This document shows positions 1-34,196 of a DNA stretch of 38,551 bases, piece after piece. The notes beneath the pieces were generated by a model that worked only from the letters and a program-made list of their open reading frames with translations, was not told where the DNA came from and ran no database searches. The position numbers and the translations under genes are program-made. How positions within the stretch are numbered: position 1 is the first letter of the stretch; every line of letters begins with the position of its first letter. The DNA lies in the NCBI GenBank assembly GCA_913064925.1, contig CAJYBN010000001.1:1-38551 (forward strand), in the 5' to 3' direction. The stretch is from an uncultured Peptococcaceae bacterium. Its GTDB lineage: Bacteria > Bacillota > Desulfotomaculia > Desulfotomaculales > Desulfallaceae.

Positions 1-632
1 GCGGTCCCCGGGAACCCATCGACCCGGTGCGTTTTATCGGCAACCGCAGTTCGGGCAAAATGGGCTATGCCTTGGCCGAGGCCGCGGTGGACAGGGGCGC
101 ACAGGTTTACCTGGTTTCCGGTCCTACCGGGTTGGAACCTCCCGCCGGCGTCAAGCTGACCAGCGTGGAGACTGCCGAAGAGATGTACCGGGCGGTGATG
201 GGTCTGTACCCGGATGTGGATGTAGTGGTAAAGGCTGCGGCCGTGGCGGACTACCGCCCGCGCACGGCGTCGCCGCAGAAAATAAAAAAAGACCGGGACA
301 GCCTGGTTATCGAACTGGAAAAAAACCCGGATATTTTGCGGGAACTGGGCAGGAAGAAGGAACAACAGCTGCTGGTGGGTTTTGCGGCGGAAACGGAGGA
401 CCTGATTGACAACGCGCGGCAAAAATTACACGATAAGAAACTGGACTTGCTTGTGGCTAATGATGTGACCCAGCCGGGGGCCGGGTTCGGTGCCGATACC
501 AATTTGGCCAAGCTGTTGTTCCCGGACGGGCGCGTGGAATCCCTCCCTTTGATGGATAAGTTGGAGCTCAGCCACCGCATCTGGGATGAGGTTGTCAAGC
601 TGCGGGCGCAAAAGCAAGAGGCAGCAGGTTAA
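1..632 (+). CDS. coaBC: CoaBC (phosphopantothenoylcysteine decarboxylase / phosphopantothenate-cysteine ligase), C-terminal CoaB part; 5' end lies outside the window
   Basis: The frame is open from the window edge to TAA at 630-632. GNRSSGKMGYALAEAA, KAAAVADYRP and LLVANDV are typical CoaB/Dfp ligase-domain motifs. Confidence 0.85.
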   Translation, partial: GPREPIDPVRFIGNRSSGKMGYALAEAAVDRGAQVYLVSGPTGLEPPAGVKLTSVETAEEMYRAVMGLYPDVDVVVKAAAVADYRPRTASPQKIKKDRDSLVIELEKNPDILRELGRKKEQQLLVGFAAETEDLIDNARQKLHDKKLDLLVANDVTQPGAGFGADTNLAKLLFPDGRVESLPLMDKLELSHRIWDEVVKLRAQKQEAAG

Positions 633-665
633 TCTGCTGCTTAAGGCTGTTGAGATACCTTGGCA

Positions 666-708
666 GGCGCTTCCGGCGCGGAGTTTGGAGTTAGCTAACG
701 GAAGCGCC
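666..708. terminator. Hairpin between convergent coaBC and the 714-1100 gene (possible bidirectional terminator)
   Basis: Perfect 10-bp arms GGCGCTTCCG (666-675) / CGGAAGCGCC (699-708) with a 23-nt loop. Only a weak T tract follows, so function is uncertain. Confidence 0.4.
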
Positions 709-713
709 CTTTG

Positions 714-1100
714 TCAACACTTTGCATCTTGGTTGGTCATAAGGGTGAGGTAAGTGGTTTGGCCTTCCTTGAACCCCCTGACCAGTTCGCAGTGGCGCAG
801 CACGGCAAATTGCTTTTCCAGCTCCCACTGGGGCAGGTCGAAATGACGGGCCAGTTCATCGCGGGTAATTTTCCCTTTTTCTTTGATTAACTCGTATATT
901 TGCTTCTGCAGTGGCGTCAGCCCCTCCGCTCCCCGCAGGCCAAGCTGGGCACGCGTAGCTTTGGCGCTGGCTACTGCGGCGGGATCGCAGGGCTTCGGCG
1001 GTTGCAGGACGTCAATATAACAGTCCTCGCAGAGCCGCTTGCCGTACCACTCGTAGCTTTGATCTTTGCTTATTTGGCTATGACACCTGTCGCAAGTCAC
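714..1100 (-). CDS. Small zinc-ribbon + winged-helix protein, function unknown
   Basis: The tracked ORF is 714-1163. I place the start at GTG (1098-1100) because AAGGAGGTG (1108-1116, minus strand) lies 7 nt upstream. The N-terminus has CDRC...CEDC (two CxxC pairs). The C-terminus LTPLQKQIYELIKEKGKITRDELARHF looks like a wHTH. Confidence 0.6.
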   Translation of the reverse strand: MTCDRCHSQISKDQSYEWYGKRLCEDCYIDVLQPPKPCDPAAVASAKATRAQLGLRGAEGLTPLQKQIYELIKEKGKITRDELARHFDLPQWELEKQFAVLRHCELVRGFKEGQTTYLTLMTNQDAKC

Positions 1101-1122
1101 GCTGCCGCACCTCCTTGCTACT

Positions 1123-1151
1123 ATTGTACTATTCAACATATTAAATGTAAA
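1123..1151 (-). promoter_or_regulatory. Sigma-A-type promoter for the 714-1100 gene
   Basis: Minus strand reads TTTACA (1146-1151), 17-nt spacer, TACAAT (1123-1128), just upstream of the RBS. Confidence 0.5.
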
Positions 1152-1169
1152 TATATTAACCAAATAGCT

Positions 1170-1670
1170 TTATTTTTTGTTGAGGCCGGCCTGCAACTTT
1201 TGCAGTAATTCTACGAGCCTGGTTTTTTCCTCGGTACTCAGGCCGGACATGGCTTCCCGGGTAAAAACCGTGTGAATGGGCAGTATATTTTCCATGAGGA
1301 GCAGGGCCTTGGCGGTGAGTCTAGCCCGGCAAACACGACGGTCCACAGGGTCGGTTTCTCTGACCACCAGGTTGTCTCTTTCCAGCCGGTCTATCAAACC
1401 AGTAATGTTAGCCTTACTCACCAGCATGCGCTCGCCAAGCTCCGAAAGAGACAGACCCCGGTCGCCCGCCTGACGCAGCTGCATAAGAGCATTGAATTTG
1501 GGCTGCGACAGGCCGAAACGGGCAAAATGCCTGCTCAGGACGTCTTCCAGCAGGTCGTATGTTTTGGTAAGTTCGATTATGGTTCTTATGGCCCAATAGG
1601 CATCATTTTCCTCAGTCAACTGTATTTCCCCCACATGTAGAATTTTATAGACAATATTCAGCGCTGTCAA
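1170..1670 (-). CDS. MarR-family transcriptional regulator
   Basis: LSQPKFNALMQL...LSLSELGERMLVSKANITGLIDRLERDNLVVRETDPVDRR is a canonical MarR wHTH. The TTG start at 1670 has no clear RBS, so the true start may be slightly downstream. Confidence 0.8.
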   Translation of the reverse strand: MTALNIVYKILHVGEIQLTEENDAYWAIRTIIELTKTYDLLEDVLSRHFARFGLSQPKFNALMQLRQAGDRGLSLSELGERMLVSKANITGLIDRLERDNLVVRETDPVDRRVCRARLTAKALLLMENILPIHTVFTREAMSGLSTEEKTRLVELLQKLQAGLNKK

Positions 1671-1705
1671 TAAACTGGAGGGAAGGTAGGGAAGGTAAAC
1701 AGGTT

Positions 1706-2632
1706 ATGAGCGGCGTAAACAACAACATTTTAGAACTGGTGGGCCGAACGCCGGTAGTCAGGTTGCACAAGGTGAAGGACGGATGCCCGGCGGAAATACT
1801 GGCCAAGCTGGAAATGGTCAATCCCAGCGGCAGCGCCAAAGCCAGGGCGGCGCTGGGCATGATTACAGCTGCCGAAAAAGCGGGAAAAATCAATCCGGGG
1901 AGTGTTATCGTCGAACCGACCAGCGGCAACCAGGGCATTGCGCTGGCCATGGTGGGGGCTGTTAAGGGGTACCGCGTTATCGTGGTTATGCCGGATTCCA
2001 TGAGCAGGGAGCGGCAGCAGCTGGCCAGGGCCTACGGGGCCGAAGTGGTGCTCACTCCCGCTGCGGAAGATATCACCGGGGCAATGAACAAGGCGCGGGA
2101 GCTGGTGGCGCAAATTCCAGGCGCGTGGATGCCGGACCAGTTTTCTAATCCCGACAACCCGGCATTTCACGAGCAAACGACGGCCAGAGAAATACTGGCA
2201 CAGGTGGACGGCGAAATCCATGCCCTTGTGGCCGGCGTCGGCACCGGGGGTACGCTGACCGGCGTGGCCAGGGTGCTGAAGAAAAGATATCCGGGAATAA
2301 AAGTGTACGCTGTGGAGCCCAAGAGGTCGGCGGTCCTGTCCGGGGGTAAACCGGGCCCACACGGCATCCAAGGTATTGGGGACGGTTTTGTGCCCGGCAA
2401 CCTGGACCTTTCCCTGGTGGATGCGCCCTTTGCCGTAGATGATGAGGAAGCTTTTCACATGACCAGGCGGCTGGCCCGGGAGGAAGGCCTGCTGGTGGGG
2501 ATCTCCTCCGGCGCTGCCGTGCACGCCGCCGTGTCGGTGGGCAGGGAACTGGGCGCGGGCAAGACCGTGCTCACCTTGCTGCCCGATACCGGGGAGCGCT
2601 ATCTCAGCACGCCCGTATTTGAATTTGAATAA
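1706..2632 (+). CDS. cysK: Cysteine synthase A / O-acetylserine sulfhydrylase (PLP-dependent)
   Basis: 308 aa. Contains the PLP-lysine region NPSGSAKAR, the GVGTGGTLTG loop and ISSGAA. A GGGAAGG RBS precedes the ATG. Confidence 0.85.
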   Translation: MSGVNNNILELVGRTPVVRLHKVKDGCPAEILAKLEMVNPSGSAKARAALGMITAAEKAGKINPGSVIVEPTSGNQGIALAMVGAVKGYRVIVVMPDSMSRERQQLARAYGAEVVLTPAAEDITGAMNKARELVAQIPGAWMPDQFSNPDNPAFHEQTTAREILAQVDGEIHALVAGVGTGGTLTGVARVLKKRYPGIKVYAVEPKRSAVLSGGKPGPHGIQGIGDGFVPGNLDLSLVDAPFAVDDEEAFHMTRRLAREEGLLVGISSGAAVHAAVSVGRELGAGKTVLTLLPDTGERYLSTPVFEFE

Positions 2633-2746
2633 GAGAATTTGAATAGGAGAACTAGCGAGGGCTGCTCTGCCGGGTCAGCCGCGGGTTAGGGGTCGGTAGG
2701 TTGATTGGCGAACACGGGTGACGCCCCACCAACAAGGAGTGAAACG

Positions 2747-3445
2747 ATGGCATACAAGGTGCTGGTTGTCGACGACGAGGAGTCCATCGTCAGGCTGGTT
2801 ACCTTCAACCTGGAAAAAGAGGGGTTCCAAACGCTAAAGGCCTACAACGGGGAAGAGGCGCTGGAAATCATCAGCGCGGAGAAACCGGACCTGGTGGTGC
2901 TGGACATTATGCTGCCGGGGCTGGACGGTTTTGAAGTCTGCCGGCGCATCCGCCGCGAAGAATGGCCGGTGGCGGTAATCATGCTTACCGCCCGGGACGA
3001 GGAAATAGACACGGTGCTGGGGTTGGAACTGGGGGCGGACGATTATGTTACCAAGCCCTTCAGCCCCCGTGAACTGGTGGCACGCGTCAAAGCCGTGCTC
3101 AGGCGTACTTCGGCAGGGGAAAAGCAAACCGGCGGCGAACAAATCACCGTCGGCAGCTTGGTGATCGACACCGCCAGGCACGAGGTGTACGTCAACGGGC
3201 AGCAGGTGGAACTTACCCCCAAGGAATTCGAGCTGCTGCATTTTCTGGCCCGCAACGCCGGCCGGGTAATGACCAGGGACGCCCTGCTCAATCACATTTG
3301 GGGCTATACCTACGACGGCGATACCAGAATAGTGGATGTGCACTTAAGCCACCTGCGGGAAAAAATTGAGCCCAATCCTAAAAACCCGGTATATATCAAA
3401 ACCATCAGGGGAGTGGGCTATAAATTGAAAGGTCCGGATGTTTAG
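2747..3445 (+). CDS. phoP: OmpR/PhoB-family response regulator, PhoP-like
   Basis: Receiver domain (VLVVDDEE, VLDIMLPGLDG, TKPF) plus a winged-helix output (TIRGVGYKL). I start it at ATG 2747, which is preceded by AAGGAG, rather than at the ORF-track TTG 2705. Confidence 0.8.
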   Translation: MAYKVLVVDDEESIVRLVTFNLEKEGFQTLKAYNGEEALEIISAEKPDLVVLDIMLPGLDGFEVCRRIRREEWPVAVIMLTARDEEIDTVLGLELGADDYVTKPFSPRELVARVKAVLRRTSAGEKQTGGEQITVGSLVIDTARHEVYVNGQQVELTPKEFELLHFLARNAGRVMTRDALLNHIWGYTYDGDTRIVDVHLSHLREKIEPNPKNPVYIKTIRGVGYKLKGPDV

Positions 3446-30322: not shown

Positions 30323-30406
30323 AAGAAATAATAGTTAAGAAATAACCCCTGCGGGAACCGGAAACACGCTTTGCTATGGCCATACAAGGAGGAACAGGAA
30401 GGCTTG

Positions 30407-31063
30407 ATGCAGGAAAGTCAACCCCAAGTCAACTTGGCCAGATATATCACCATTGCCGTGGATATAGCCACCCGCATAGTACGCGGCGAGTATAGAATCG
30501 GGCAAAAGCTTTTCGGCAGATCCACTCTGGCCGGCAAGTACAACGTTTCGCCGGAAACCATCAGGCGCGCTCTAACGCTGCTGCAGGAGCGGGGTATCGT
30601 GGAAGTCATGCCCGGCGTGGGCGTGGTGGTAAAATCCGACCGCGCGGCTCACGAATACCTGGCGGATTATAACCAAAAAAAAGTGTTGTTTGACATCCAG
30701 GAGCGGCTGACGGAGCTGCTTAAGCAAAGGGAGAAGTTAAATTATGAAATAGACCGCCTTACCAACCAGTTGTTGGATTACACCTTTAAAATGGCGGGAA
30801 GGCTGCAAAAGCTGGAAGAGATAAGCGTACCTGCTAATTCGCCGCTGCTGGGCAAGTCGCTGGCCGAGGTGGGTTTCCGGGCCCGTACCGGCGCCACTGT
30901 TTTGTCCATCTACCGCCAGGGGCAAGAAATTTTGTCCCCGGAAGCCAATACCAGCCTACAGGCGGGGGACGTACTGCTGGTTGTCGGAACCAATGAGTCG
31001 GCCAAAATGGTGCAGCAGCTGGTCGAAGGGGGCATCATTTCAGGCGATGTAACGGAACATTAA
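30407..31063 (+). CDS. GntR-family transcriptional regulator with C-terminal TrkA_C (RCK_C) ligand-binding domain
   Basis: wHTH STLAGKYNVSPETIRRALTLLQERGIVEVMPGVGVVV. A coiled linker. TrkA_C-like GKSLAEVGFRARTGATVLSIYRQGQEILSPEANTSLQAGDVLLVVG. Confidence 0.75.
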   Translation: MQESQPQVNLARYITIAVDIATRIVRGEYRIGQKLFGRSTLAGKYNVSPETIRRALTLLQERGIVEVMPGVGVVVKSDRAAHEYLADYNQKKVLFDIQERLTELLKQREKLNYEIDRLTNQLLDYTFKMAGRLQKLEEISVPANSPLLGKSLAEVGFRARTGATVLSIYRQGQEILSPEANTSLQAGDVLLVVGTNESAKMVQQLVEGGIISGDVTEH

Positions 31064-31095
31064 AAAGCCTTGACGTGCAAGCGCAAGGCTTTTTT
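31062..31095 (+). terminator. Rho-independent terminator closing the cheW...gntR gene string
   Basis: Arms AAAAAGCCTTG (31062-31072) / CAAGGCTTTTT (31084-31094), 11-nt loop, T-run. Confidence 0.8.
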
Positions 31096-31201
31096 AATGT
31101 ATGCCGGGCTTGTGTTTATTATTGAGTTTATTTATCATTTAGAGATTATTTTTTGCATTCCGGTTGTAATGTGTTTCTGGTACTACGCTGCGCAACAGGC
31201 C

Positions 31202-31462
31202 ATGAATGAAATCAAGTGGTTCAAAAAGTGGAAAAAAGTGTTTAAAGGCGTTTCTTCCAGGCTGTTGCGAAAAGAATTTCCGGAGTTGAAAAAGGAGCTG
31301 TGGGGCAATAGCTTCTGGAGTTCCAGCTACTTCATCGCTTCCACCGGCCAGGTAAGTTTGGAAACGCTAAAACGCTACGTGGAGGAACAAAGCCATGAAA
31401 GGCCGTCCAAAATCAAAAAAGAAAGTGCAATAGGTCAAAAAGAAGGAATTCACCGGCAATGA
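31202..31462 (+). pseudogene. tnpA: IS200/IS605 Y1 transposase TnpA, C-terminal fragment only (HUH half deleted)
   Basis: FKGVSSRLLRKEFPELKKELWGNSFWSSSYFIASTGQVSLETLKRYVEEQ aligns by eye with the C-terminal third of IS608-type TnpA, including the catalytic-Tyr helix. No HUH motif is present. The 5' boundary is approximate. Confidence 0.7.
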
Positions 31463-31475
31463 GCAGTACAAAAGC

Positions 31476-33056
31476 GTGGTAATCACTACGCCCAAAAAAG
31501 CACTCAATAAGGTAAAGCTGGACGAGCTTTATAAAGTTGATACACTCCACGCTCAGGCCGTCAACGCCTGGATTGACAAATGGTACGACCATTTAGAGAT
31601 GGTGGAAAAAATTTTATCCGGCAGGGCCACCACCACGATGCAGAAACAGACCATCGACATCGGCCTGCCTTCTGCTTATATCCAGATCGCCGGCAACCGG
31701 ATGCTGGACATCCTTCGAGAGCACTACCTGGCCGTCCAGGATAAGATAGCTTCGGATGTCTGGAAGGAAGAAAAACTGTCCGCGGAATACAAATTCGTCT
31801 ATGCTACCTTCGCCCGGAATTACGTCATGTTTTCCCGGTTTATAAGCGGGAATTTTGCTGTAGACGACGTGGTTGATTCCTGGGCTGTCGGCGAAAACGC
31901 GTACCTGCAAAAAGCTACCGAGTGCTACAAAAAGCTTTCCGATCAAGAAAAAGCCCAAATACCTGCCAAAATTAAAGAAAAGTTTTCTGAAATCAGGTCC
32001 GTTTGGAAGAAGCCTTTCTTTAAAGGCGGCAGCATTCTTCTTGACTACCGGGTGTTTTCCGTAAGCGAGGCGGAAGAAACGACAGAGTTCAACCTCTGGG
32101 TGGAAATTACCTCTACTGAGCCGTACAAGCGCGTAAAGATACCGTTCTATGTAACCGGCAAAAAACTTGACATGCTGGAAACCCTTTTCCCTGGCTGGCA
32201 GAACACCAGCCGGCGCAAGGGGTTATTGGTCATCAGGGAAAGGCACGTTCACCTCTCCATCCCCGCAGAGAAGGAAAAAACCGAACCCGTGTCCCCCTTA
32301 GCTTACGTCGGCTGCGACGTAGGTATAAGCTCTCCCATCAGCCTGCACAACGGTAGCCGGTTCGGGAGAAACCTCAACGAGCTGGTCAATGAAGACTACG
32401 ACGAGTATTTGCGCCTGCAGGCGATTAGGAACAAGTTTCGCAGCCTCAAAGAAAAAGCAGAGAAGCGGTACGAAATCACCAAAGACCTCGTGGTCCGGGA
32501 AAAACTCCAGCGCAAGATAGCCGAGTACGAGCGCCACCTCTCCGACCACCGGTGGGCAGAACTTAGAAGGAAAATTAAGGCCACCGTAAAAACCGAAATC
32601 GGCCGGGCGGTGAACCTCATGCTCGAAGAACTTCCCCTTTCGAACCACGTGGTCATCGTTCTGGAAGACCTTTCCGAAATGGACGCCAGTGGAGCAAGAC
32701 GCTCCAAAAGAGGGTGCTTTGACCTCTCCGTCTGGGCCAGGAGGGAACTCCAGGACCACATCAAGCACGACCTGGAGTGGCGGGGCGGCAAGGCTATCTA
32801 CGTCGTCCCAGACTATACTAGCCAGAAGTGTTACGAGTGCGATTACGTGGACAAAGACAACCGGCGTGGGGATGTTTTCCACTGCAAAAGGTGCGGCTAC
32901 ACCGACCATGCCGACGTGAACGCTGCTAAAAACATCAAAGAACGTTTCTTTGATGAGGAAATCAATCAACTGGCCAAAAAATATTCTTGGAACAAAAATT
33001 TGCGCCGCGAAAAGATAAAGGAACTGCTCTTGCAAAGAGCAAACCAGGCGGCGTAA
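31476..33056 (+). CDS. tnpB: TnpB / Cas12-like RuvC nuclease (IS605 OrfB family), 526 aa, intact
   Basis: RuvC-I D281 (AYVGCDVGISS), RuvC-II E397 (VIVLEDLSE), zinc ribbon CYEC...CKRC, RuvC-III D480 (HADVNAAKNI). GTG start has no clear RBS. Upstream in-frame stop at 31431-31433. Confidence 0.8.
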   Translation: MVITTPKKALNKVKLDELYKVDTLHAQAVNAWIDKWYDHLEMVEKILSGRATTTMQKQTIDIGLPSAYIQIAGNRMLDILREHYLAVQDKIASDVWKEEKLSAEYKFVYATFARNYVMFSRFISGNFAVDDVVDSWAVGENAYLQKATECYKKLSDQEKAQIPAKIKEKFSEIRSVWKKPFFKGGSILLDYRVFSVSEAEETTEFNLWVEITSTEPYKRVKIPFYVTGKKLDMLETLFPGWQNTSRRKGLLVIRERHVHLSIPAEKEKTEPVSPLAYVGCDVGISSPISLHNGSRFGRNLNELVNEDYDEYLRLQAIRNKFRSLKEKAEKRYEITKDLVVREKLQRKIAEYERHLSDHRWAELRRKIKATVKTEIGRAVNLMLEELPLSNHVVIVLEDLSEMDASGARRSKRGCFDLSVWARRELQDHIKHDLEWRGGKAIYVVPDYTSQKCYECDYVDKDNRRGDVFHCKRCGYTDHADVNAAKNIKERFFDEEINQLAKKYSWNKNLRREKIKELLLQRANQAA

Positions 33057-33197
33057 CTCAGGTACGTATGAAGCCGTAAGGTTCGCCTCCAGCCGGGATG
33101 AAAGAAATGGACCGTAGCGGAGGCGCCCTGGAATGAGGAACGCGGGCGGAAGGTTTTTAAAACCGGAAGCCCCTTCCTTCAGGAAGGGGAGGCTTCA
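33057..33197 (+). ncRNA. Candidate omega-RNA (reRNA) scaffold 3' portion / IS right end
   Basis: Non-coding tail with hairpins 33084-33090/33119-33125 and 33166-33177/33182-33196. Its position relative to tnpB matches known TnpB guide-RNA loci. The scaffold probably starts inside the tnpB 3' end. Confidence 0.35.
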
Positions 33198-34196
33198 CCC
33201 GGCTGCACCACCGTGCTGTACGAGGGGACGCCAGACTACCCGCGCAAAGACATGTGGTGGGACGTGGTCTCCCGCAACAAAGCCACGGCACTGTGGCTGT
33301 CTCCCACCGGCGTGCGCGGCTTGATGCGTCTGGGCATTGAGGAGGCTCGCAAGCATGACTTGAGCTCCGTAGAGAGGATTTTCTGCGCCGGTGAAGTTTT
33401 AAACCCGCCGGTCTGGTCCTGGCTGCAGGAGCAGGTTTTTGAAAATAAAATACCGGTAATGGATCACATGTGGCAAACAGAAACCTCGGGCCCCATTTTC
33501 GCCAATCCGTACGGCCTGGGCATGATACCCATCAAGCCCGGTTCGGCGCATGTCCCGGTGCCCGGCGTGGTGGCCGAGGTGCTGGACGAAAAGGACGGCA
33601 AACCCGTACCGCCCGGAGGTAAGGGGGTAGTGGTCATCAAAAAACCGTTTCCGGGGCTGGTTTCCACCCTTTGGGGCGATCCCGAAGGTTACCTGTACAA
33701 TTACTGGGAGCGCCTGCCCGTTACCAAGGGCATGTACTTGTGCGGCGACGCTGCCTCCTTTGATGAAGACGGCTATATATGGTTTGCCGGGCGGTCCGAC
33801 GAGGTGATCAAAATCGCTGCCCACCGCATCGGTACTGTGGAAGTGGAAAGCGCTTTAATTTCGCACCCCGCCGTGGTGGAGGCCGGGGTTTCCGGCGTGC
33901 CCGACGAATTGCGGGGCGAGGTGGCCTGTGCCTTCGTAGTGCTGAAGCAGGGGTACGAGCCTTCGGAAGAAATGAAGCAAGAGCTTATCGCCCACGTGCG
34001 CAAAACCATGGGCGCCATCGTGGTTATGCGGGATATTCAGTTTGTCAGTTCGTTACCGAAAACCCGCAGCGGTAAAATCATGCGGCGGGTCATGAAGACC
34101 CTTTGGCTGGGCAAAGAATTGGGCGACCTGTCCACCATTGAGGAAGAGGTTTCCATTGGAGAGATTTATGACGCCATCAAGAGAATGAAAGGGTAA
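33198..34196 (+). pseudogene. acs: Acetyl-CoA synthetase / AMP-forming acyl-CoA synthetase, 3' fragment (N-terminal ~half missing)
   Basis: ...CTTVLYEGTPDYP, WQTETSG, YLCGDAASFDEDGYIWFAGRSDEVIKIAAHRIG and LPKTRSGKIMRR match the C-terminal half of Acs. The P-loop/AMP-binding N-terminal part is not in the window. The frame is still open for 327 codons. Confidence 0.8.

Follow-up and report, generated by a model that had tools for sequence, protein, structure and literature searches.

Does a TnpB-type RuvC nuclease gene left behind in a decapitated insertion sequence (IS) represent a stranded, perhaps domesticated RNA-guided nuclease, or an ordinary transposon copy caught soon after damage? This question is raised by positions 31242-33198 of a 38,551-nt stretch of DNA (hereafter, the window) from an uncultured Peptococcaceae bacterium (GenBank assembly GCA_913064925.1, contig CAJYBN010000001.1, positions 1 to 38,551 of the forward strand), for which a reading made without database searches (hereafter, the sequence-only reading) had proposed both alternatives. 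Our analysis indicates that this locus is very probably a decaying remnant of an IS200/IS605-family insertion sequence belonging to a small clade with long TnpB proteins (about 553 amino acids, aa), which inserted into an acetate/acyl-CoA ligase gene (acs) and was later damaged by a deletion and by a nonsense codon in tnpB. Since tnpB carries an early stop codon, the element appears to be decaying rather than domesticated, and of the two alternatives the evidence favours a recently damaged ordinary IS copy.

The tnpB reading frame and the truncated 5' end

The 526-codon open reading frame (ORF) described in the sequence-only reading, starting with GTG at position 31476 and ending with TAA, is present on the forward strand, but it is not the complete gene. 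An ATG codon at position 31395, in frame with this ORF, coincides in the alignment with the point where the 553-aa relatives begin and is preceded by a GGAGG Shine-Dalgarno sequence, while no such sequence was found before GTG 31476. The relatives begin with MKGRPKSKKKVQKVKKK, 27 codons upstream of GTG 31476, and translation of the window from ATG 31395 gives MKGRPKSKKKVQ, a stop, and then VKKKEFTGNEQYKSVV. This stop, TAG, occupies codon 13, which in relatives encodes a lysine (AAA or AAG) of a conserved VQKVKKK stretch; none of the relatives examined has a stop at this position. Therefore, the 526-codon ORF is the remainder of a 553-codon gene downstream of a nonsense codon, and the nuclease gene cannot be regarded as intact or its frame as fully open, as had been proposed. 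The same TAG is present in a second record, the JGI metagenome contig L027, which has no mismatches to the window over 5,899 nt.

At four columns that are otherwise invariant, the protein encoded in the window has a private substitution (E20K, R39H, L118M, and G423R), compared to none or one in each of its six closest relatives, which is a mild sign of relaxed constraint. Its cluster at 90% identity contains only the protein itself, the duplicate record, and a 35-aa fragment.

Upstream of tnpB only the 3' part of the Y1 transposase gene tnpA remains. Its product shares 83% identity with residues 83-153 of the 153-aa TnpA that is encoded in full by the related element in contig L028, so that 72 codons including the stop have survived, and not about 85, as the sequence-only reading had counted in recognising the truncation. 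The loss of the HUH half, also noted there, is borne out by the match of the upstream ORF to positions 70-121 only of the 121-position Pfam profile Y1_Tnp. The same is true of the left end, since the left-end hairpin pattern was not found in the window; nor was there a second copy of the element within it. Nucleotide BLAST comparisons with two relatives, from a Pelotomaculum metagenome-assembled genome (MAG, 80% nucleotide identity) and from a metagenome (67%), gave the same homology limits, 31242/31244 to 33198; both relatives run on upstream into the HUH half of tnpA, while the window does not. Thus, the earlier view of a TnpB-type RuvC nuclease in a decapitated IS200/IS605 element unable to mobilise itself is supported.

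A break at the 5' side mediated by TnpA, with TTTAAA at the junction, was considered and found to be unsupported, as the joining of acs GTGTTTA to tnpA TTAAAGG explains the junction. The GC content of the element is 50.6%, compared to 56.5% for the whole window. Scanning of positions 30900-33400 for sigma-70 promoters revealed no sites, and terminator-like matches in this region were at chance level.

Proposed insertion into acs and subsequent damage

Both sides of the element are occupied by acs remnants. The upstream one, MCFWYYAAQQAMNEIKWFKKWKKVF, shares 13 of 24 residues with the ACAS_N ORF of the acs homologue in contig L031 (BLASTP, E 1e-7), although the Pfam ACAS_N match is weak (E 0.023). 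The downstream part covers only positions 329-646 of the 649-position NCBIfam acetate--CoA ligase profile and is 86% identical to protein P0044. The right end of the element adjoins acs exactly where the uninterrupted orthologue in contig L030 (86% identical protein) reads CTTTTGAC followed by CGGCTGCACC. The empty site in L030 is GGG CCG CTT TTG AC/C GGC TGC ACC ACA GTG, where the slash marks the junction, and the window continues after the terminal TTCAC of the element as C GGC TGC ACC ACC GTG, so the flank corresponds to the L030 sequence 3' of CTTTTGAC. If leucine was encoded there by the synonymous TTA, the site before insertion would have read TTTAAC/CGGCTGC, which is the target sequence of the family.

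The acs remnants on both sides, the homology limits, and the TAG codon together point to a history of insertion into acs, deletion, and nonsense mutation. In the proposed scenario, the element would have inserted 3' of a TTTAAC lying within three acs codons for Leu-Leu-Thr, with element and gene in the same orientation. A single deletion of about 1.1 kb would then account for the loss of roughly 0.8 kb of acs together with the left end of the element (about 105 nt) and tnpA codons 1-82, and an AAG/AAA-to-TAG substitution would have truncated translation of TnpB from the ATG served by the Shine-Dalgarno sequence. The consequences for the host are limited to the conversion of one acs paralogue into a pseudogene and to the dying of one IS copy.

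Two observations concern acs itself. The closest full-length homologue, that in L031, is called as a 64-aa ACAS_N ORF (1103-1297) and a 584-aa ORF (1294-3048) with a 4-nt overlap, reflecting either a split or frameshifted gene or an artefact of gene calling. A regulator combining GntR-type HTH and TrkA_C domains adjoins acs both in the window (30371-31063, upstream, same strand) and in the Desulfocucumaceae contig L030 that carries the orthologue (1765-1997, downstream, opposite strand), which suggests a conserved regulator-acs neighbourhood.

Relatives of the element, the nuclease and the putative omega-RNA

Complete relatives consist of a TTTAAC target, a left-end hairpin, tnpA (Y1 HUH transposase, 153 aa), an overlapping tnpB (553 aa), and a structured right end terminating in TTCAC. 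Such elements, with complete TnpA, were recovered in L028, L003, L032, and L036. Fifteen of 16 distinct flanks directly 5' of the left end carry TTTAAC and the remaining one GTTAAC. Derivative forms include tnpB-only elements with a retained left end (three in a Spirochaetia MAG and one in L029), the Pelotomaculum copy with a frameshifted tnpA, and miniature derivatives resembling palindrome-associated transposable elements (PATE-like; L026, about 120-399; L013, about 2810-3200; L025, about 1620-2320), in which the left-end hairpin is followed directly by no more than the last 30-60 tnpB codons and the right end, the putative omega-RNA scaffold being retained wholly or in part. This range of forms is standard IS200/IS605 biology.

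The clade is rare, with seven loci among 185,579 species-representative genomes and 13 loci in a metagenome collection. Its hosts are anaerobic Bacillota (Pelotomaculum, Desulfofundulus, Ammonifex, and Desulfotruncus) and one member of Spirochaetia, represented by a MAG. No clade relatives were found in a scan of viral contigs, and tblastn searches of plasmids and phages returned only distant matches with less than 30% identity; coverage of the query reached 80% or more in one plasmid record and in two phage records that are duplicates. Relatives lie in unrelated genomic contexts and are bounded by IS ends. In the Pelotomaculum MAG contig CAZLAK010000005.1 (L001; 1-800 and 3984-4913) two genes with RRXRR and HNH domains, an IscB-like/HNH endonuclease architecture, and a RecU gene precede the tnpB relative by a few kb and may constitute a cluster of mobile nuclease genes. 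In Ammonifex thiophilus (NZ_QSLN01000001.1, L011) the family left-end hairpin occurs at 1128, about 1.8 kb upstream of a tnpB relative (about 2950) whose N-terminal tail is shorter and which is immediately preceded by a different hairpin-like sequence; this may be a nested or rearranged element.

The RuvC Asp/Glu/Asp residues and the CxxC...CxxC ribbon assigned in the sequence-only reading were confirmed at the positions listed in Table 1, and none of them varies among the 19 aligned sequences of the clade. The profile searches and structural comparisons that it had suggested identified a TnpB/Cas12f-type protein. The 526-aa ORF matched Pfam Cas12f1-like_TNB (PF07282, E 3.9e-18) and narrowly passed the NCBIfam NF040570 guided_TnpB cutoff (105.3 bits versus 100), while the Cas12f2 model of NCBIfam gave 83.3 bits over residues 149-494, below its cutoff of 450. 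An AlphaFold model built with the clade alignment (predicted local distance difference test score, pLDDT, 82) has the domain order WED-REC-WED-RuvC-TNB. The best Foldseek matches in PDB were AsCas12f (E 4e-14), CnCas12f1, OsCas12f, ISFba1 TnpB, and ISDra2 TnpB (2e-7), with TM-scores of 0.3-0.5.

An enlarged N-terminal region had also been noted earlier; the extra length is real, while its interpretation as a mark of novelty did not hold, the long form being the norm in the clade. Among 5.8 billion proteins searched, about 25 close relatives with 54-82% identity were found, and almost all full-length ones have about 553 aa. The called lengths of clade members range from 528 to 561 aa, which becomes about 553 aa when the overlap with tnpA is taken into account. 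The short forms (528-544 aa) do not appear to be natural: in the two examined, of 528 and 532 aa, the frame continues open upstream as far as the Lys-rich start, and these database forms are short because gene callers avoided the overlap with tnpA. A profile hidden Markov model search of 1.84 billion representatives revealed about 25 further clusters of 520-590-aa proteins matching near full length (E 1e-54 to 1e-28), while thousands of ordinary TnpBs of 350-450 aa matched in the C-terminal half. Ten long cluster members scanned with NCBIfam were all generic guided_TnpB near the cutoff. The clade-wide length and these further clusters therefore indicate that the long N-terminus is characteristic of an ordinary TnpB branch, sparse and uncharacterised, and does not represent a new architecture.

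The right ends of relatives all terminate in TTCAC or a one-base variant; their subterminal hairpin is conserved and the flanks diverge directly after the terminus. In the window this hairpin occurs once and is unexpected by chance. The 3' end of the element probably encodes an omega-RNA scaffold: among 14 related 3' regions 98% of the cells in the proposed helices pair, with compensatory changes at eight pairs, none of 500 shuffles reached the observed values, and slid controls paired at 40-54%. Scanning of the whole window at Rfam gathering thresholds matched no family, so the putative omega-RNA does not belong to a curated one.

For intact members of the clade, a cycle based on established TnpB biology can be proposed. 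The 3' end of tnpB and the right end would be transcribed into an omega-RNA, the 3' extension of which, i.e. the flank after TTCAC, would guide the RuvC nuclease to matching DNA beside a 5'-TTTAAC transposon-associated motif (TAM); we infer this motif for the clade from the left-end flanks. The nuclease target would be the rejoined empty donor site (TTTAAC plus flank) left by TnpA excision, and cleavage would therefore promote retention of the element. The window copy has this cycle broken at three points: the transposase is missing, the left end and the TAM-bearing junction are gone, and the nuclease frame is interrupted.

Table 1. Features of the locus (window coordinates), of the 526-aa ORF product, and of the related elements
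Feature	Position	Strand	Remarks
acs N-terminal (ACAS_N) remnant MCFWYYAAQQAMNEIKWFKKWKKVF	31169..31243	+	fused in frame to tnpA remnant
acs/tnpA deletion junction	31241..31246	+	GTGTT followed by TAAAGG; microhomology up to 3 nt (TTA) possible
tnpA 3' remnant	31244..31462	+	codons 83-153 of 153 and stop; Tyr helix LKRYVEEQ, no HUH motif
Native tnpB start	31381..31397	+	Shine-Dalgarno GGAGG 31381-85, 9-nt spacer, ATG 31395-97
Full-length tnpB frame	31395..33056	+	553 codons and stop, interrupted once; matches relatives from residue 1
In-frame TAG, codon 13	31431..31433	+	Lys (AAA/AAG) in relatives, conserved VQKVKKK stretch
526-codon ORF	31476..33056	+	GTG is internal Val28 of native protein
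RuvC-I Asp D281 (D308 in native frame)	32316..32318	+	invariant column
RuvC-II Glu E397	32664..32666	+	invariant column
Zinc-ribbon/TNB cysteines C452-x2-C455 ... C470-x2-C473	32829..32894	+	invariant columns; PF07282 residues 424-487
RuvC-III Asp D480	32913..32915	+	invariant column
Putative omega-RNA scaffold	33004..33198 (about 195 nt)	+	overlaps tnpB 3' end and right end
Putative omega-RNA helices	33004-07/33049-52, 33072-75/33191-94, 33084-93/33117-25, 33170-77/33182-89
Right-end subterminal hairpin GGAAGCCCCTTCCTTCAGGAAGGGGAGGCTTCAC	33165..33198	+	element terminus ...TTCAC at 33198
Putative guide flank CGGCTGCACCACCGTGCTGT	33199..33218	+	acs sequence; guide role proposed from known TnpB/omega-RNA arrangement
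acs 3' part (acetate/acyl-CoA ligase)	33199..34196	+	reading frame from 33201
First beta strand (WED)	residues 2-6 (526-aa ORF)		AlphaFold model
Helical REC	residues 12-176 (526-aa ORF)		AlphaFold model
WED beta strands	residues 186-261 (526-aa ORF)		AlphaFold model
RuvC	residues from 276 (526-aa ORF)		AlphaFold model
Long helical hairpin	residues 300-385 (526-aa ORF)		AlphaFold model
Low-confidence lid, then zinc ribbon	residues 402-413 (526-aa ORF)		AlphaFold model
C-terminal helices	residues 494-525 (526-aa ORF)		AlphaFold model
Complete element in L028	tnpA 232-693, tnpB 629-2290		TTTAAC, left-end hairpin, tnpA (153 aa, HUH and Tyr), tnpB (553 aa), right end ...GGCTTCAC
Left-end consensus of the clade			TTTAAC-N5-CGCCGGGAAGTCYCC...GGAGATGARAGGCG

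Alternative readings and comparison with known systems

Several points weigh against the interpretation of the locus as a decaying IS copy. The inactivation rests on one base: apart from the TAG the frame is clean, with all catalytic residues and zinc ligands kept, which is why we consider the inactivation to be recent, and L027 and the window may derive from the same sample or reads, so that their agreement on the TAG is perhaps not independent. The deletion and the nonsense mutation could have come in either order, the search for a second copy covered the window, so that sibling copies and a TnpA acting in trans may exist elsewhere in the genome, and the proposed TAM, guide, and omega-RNA are deduced from sequence comparison. 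Moreover, the stop codon of the acs'-'tnpA fusion ORF (31460-62) lies only 14 nt before GTG 31476, where reinitiation could give a 526-aa protein keeping every folded domain. One could therefore hypothesise that the nuclease is immobilised but still working and that its domestication has just begun. In this case, the acs promoter would drive the fusion ORF, ribosomes would terminate at 31460-62 or at the TAG and reinitiate at the GTG, and a 526-aa TnpB lacking only the Lys-rich tail would bind the omega-RNA of the locus and act as a fixed-guide nuclease. As residues 2-6 of the 526-aa form already make the first WED strand in the AlphaFold model, no folded domain is lost, the tail varies in length in the family, being shorter in the Ammonifex copy, and the right end and the putative omega-RNA scaffold are intact. 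If this reading were true, the locus would capture TnpB immobilisation at its very beginning; nevertheless, we consider it unlikely. Reinitiation would have to use a GTG without the Shine-Dalgarno sequence that serves the native ATG, the VQKVKKK stretch that would be dispensed with is conserved clade-wide, and the private changes at invariant positions do not suggest preserved function. Apart from the neighbouring acs fragment, the TAM of which is lost, the guide would have no match, and the host gene has been destroyed and not regulated. The arrangement is seen in no relative. With acs destroyed, relatives in unrelated contexts with proper IS ends, and the native frame broken, the stranded or domesticated nuclease proposed in the sequence-only reading is unsupported.

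The possibility that the TAG is not a real stop, owing to a base-calling or assembly error or to readthrough (pyrrolysine or a suppressor, in a Desulfotomaculia-like host), appears slightly less probable still. The codon differs by one base from the lysine codons of relatives, and TAG is rare in this stretch, ending one of the 31 long ORFs of the window, compared to 22 for TAA and eight for TGA; the two records carrying it, as noted above, may share their origin. However, these records are identical, and rarity of TAG is common in Bacillota and not diagnostic. Even if a 553-aa TnpB were produced, it would come from a still decapitated and immobile element, leaving the conclusion of an ordinary IS remnant unchanged. 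It is highly improbable that the protein is a CRISPR-type effector (Cas12f or Cas12f2-like) and not a transposon TnpB. Cas12f proteins are its best structural matches and the Cas12f2 model aligns over residues 149-494, but with a score far below the cutoff, no repeat array is present in the window, as the sequence-only reading had stated, and relatives carry tnpA and IS200/IS605 ends. Neither a CRISPR array nor cas1/cas2 was seen beside clade members in any locus examined.

The locus neither opens nor settles a long-standing question. The only useful by-products are the exact ends of the element, the predicted TAM TTTAAC, for which both the left-end flanks and the empty site in L030 speak, the covariation-supported omega-RNA scaffold, and the complete copies in L028, L003, L032, and L036, which could be candidates for testing as genome-editing nucleases. 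They concern a rare, uncharacterised long-TnpB clade of anaerobic Bacillota and Spirochaetia, and their value is modest.

In its general organisation the clade resembles known IS200/IS605 elements such as ISDra2 and IS608: a Y1 HUH transposase gene is followed by an overlapping tnpB, subterminal hairpins are found at both ends, insertion occurs 3' of a fixed short target (TTTAAC), and tnpB-only and miniature derivatives exist. The window copy differs from complete elements in having neither a left end nor the HUH half of tnpA and in carrying the nonsense codon. Like TldR and other exapted TnpBs, the TnpB homologue of the window can no longer move with its element; unlike them, it has an intact RuvC D-E-D triad and a broken reading frame, no conserved partnership with a host gene, and a guide flank that is merely the disrupted insertion site.

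The RuvC triad with a zinc ribbon and the structured RNA-like region across the tnpB 3' end and right end are shared with TnpB/omega-RNA (OMEGA) nucleases, although the window protein scores far below the NCBIfam IS200_TnpB and IS607_TnpB models. ISDra2 TnpB has 408 aa with the catalytic residues D191, E278, and D361. The clade protein is about 145 aa longer, with about 117 extra residues before RuvC-I (made up by the Lys-rich tail of 27 aa and by an enlarged helical REC, which spans about 165 aa) and about 29 between RuvC-I and RuvC-II, in the helical hairpin, whereas the spacing from RuvC-II onward is the same. ISAam1 TnpB is compact (about 370 aa) compared to the 553-aa clade protein, and the two are likened by TAM and not by sequence. 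The target/TAM TTTAAC proposed here, deduced from the 16 left-end flanks only, contains TTTAA, the TAM used experimentally for ISAam1 TnpB (PMC12908284).

The closest structural resemblance is to Cas12f (AsCas12f and CnCas12f1, Foldseek E 4e-14 to 6e-12), including the WED-REC-RuvC-TNB order and a size near that of Cas12f2 (model length 524). In contrast to Cas12f, the window protein is transposon-borne and has no CRISPR array, and TM-scores reach only 0.4-0.5. It is conceivable, though unlikely, that the rare 553-aa clade with its enlarged REC represents an uncharacterised lineage, borne by transposons, that branches near the root of Cas12f2-like effectors.

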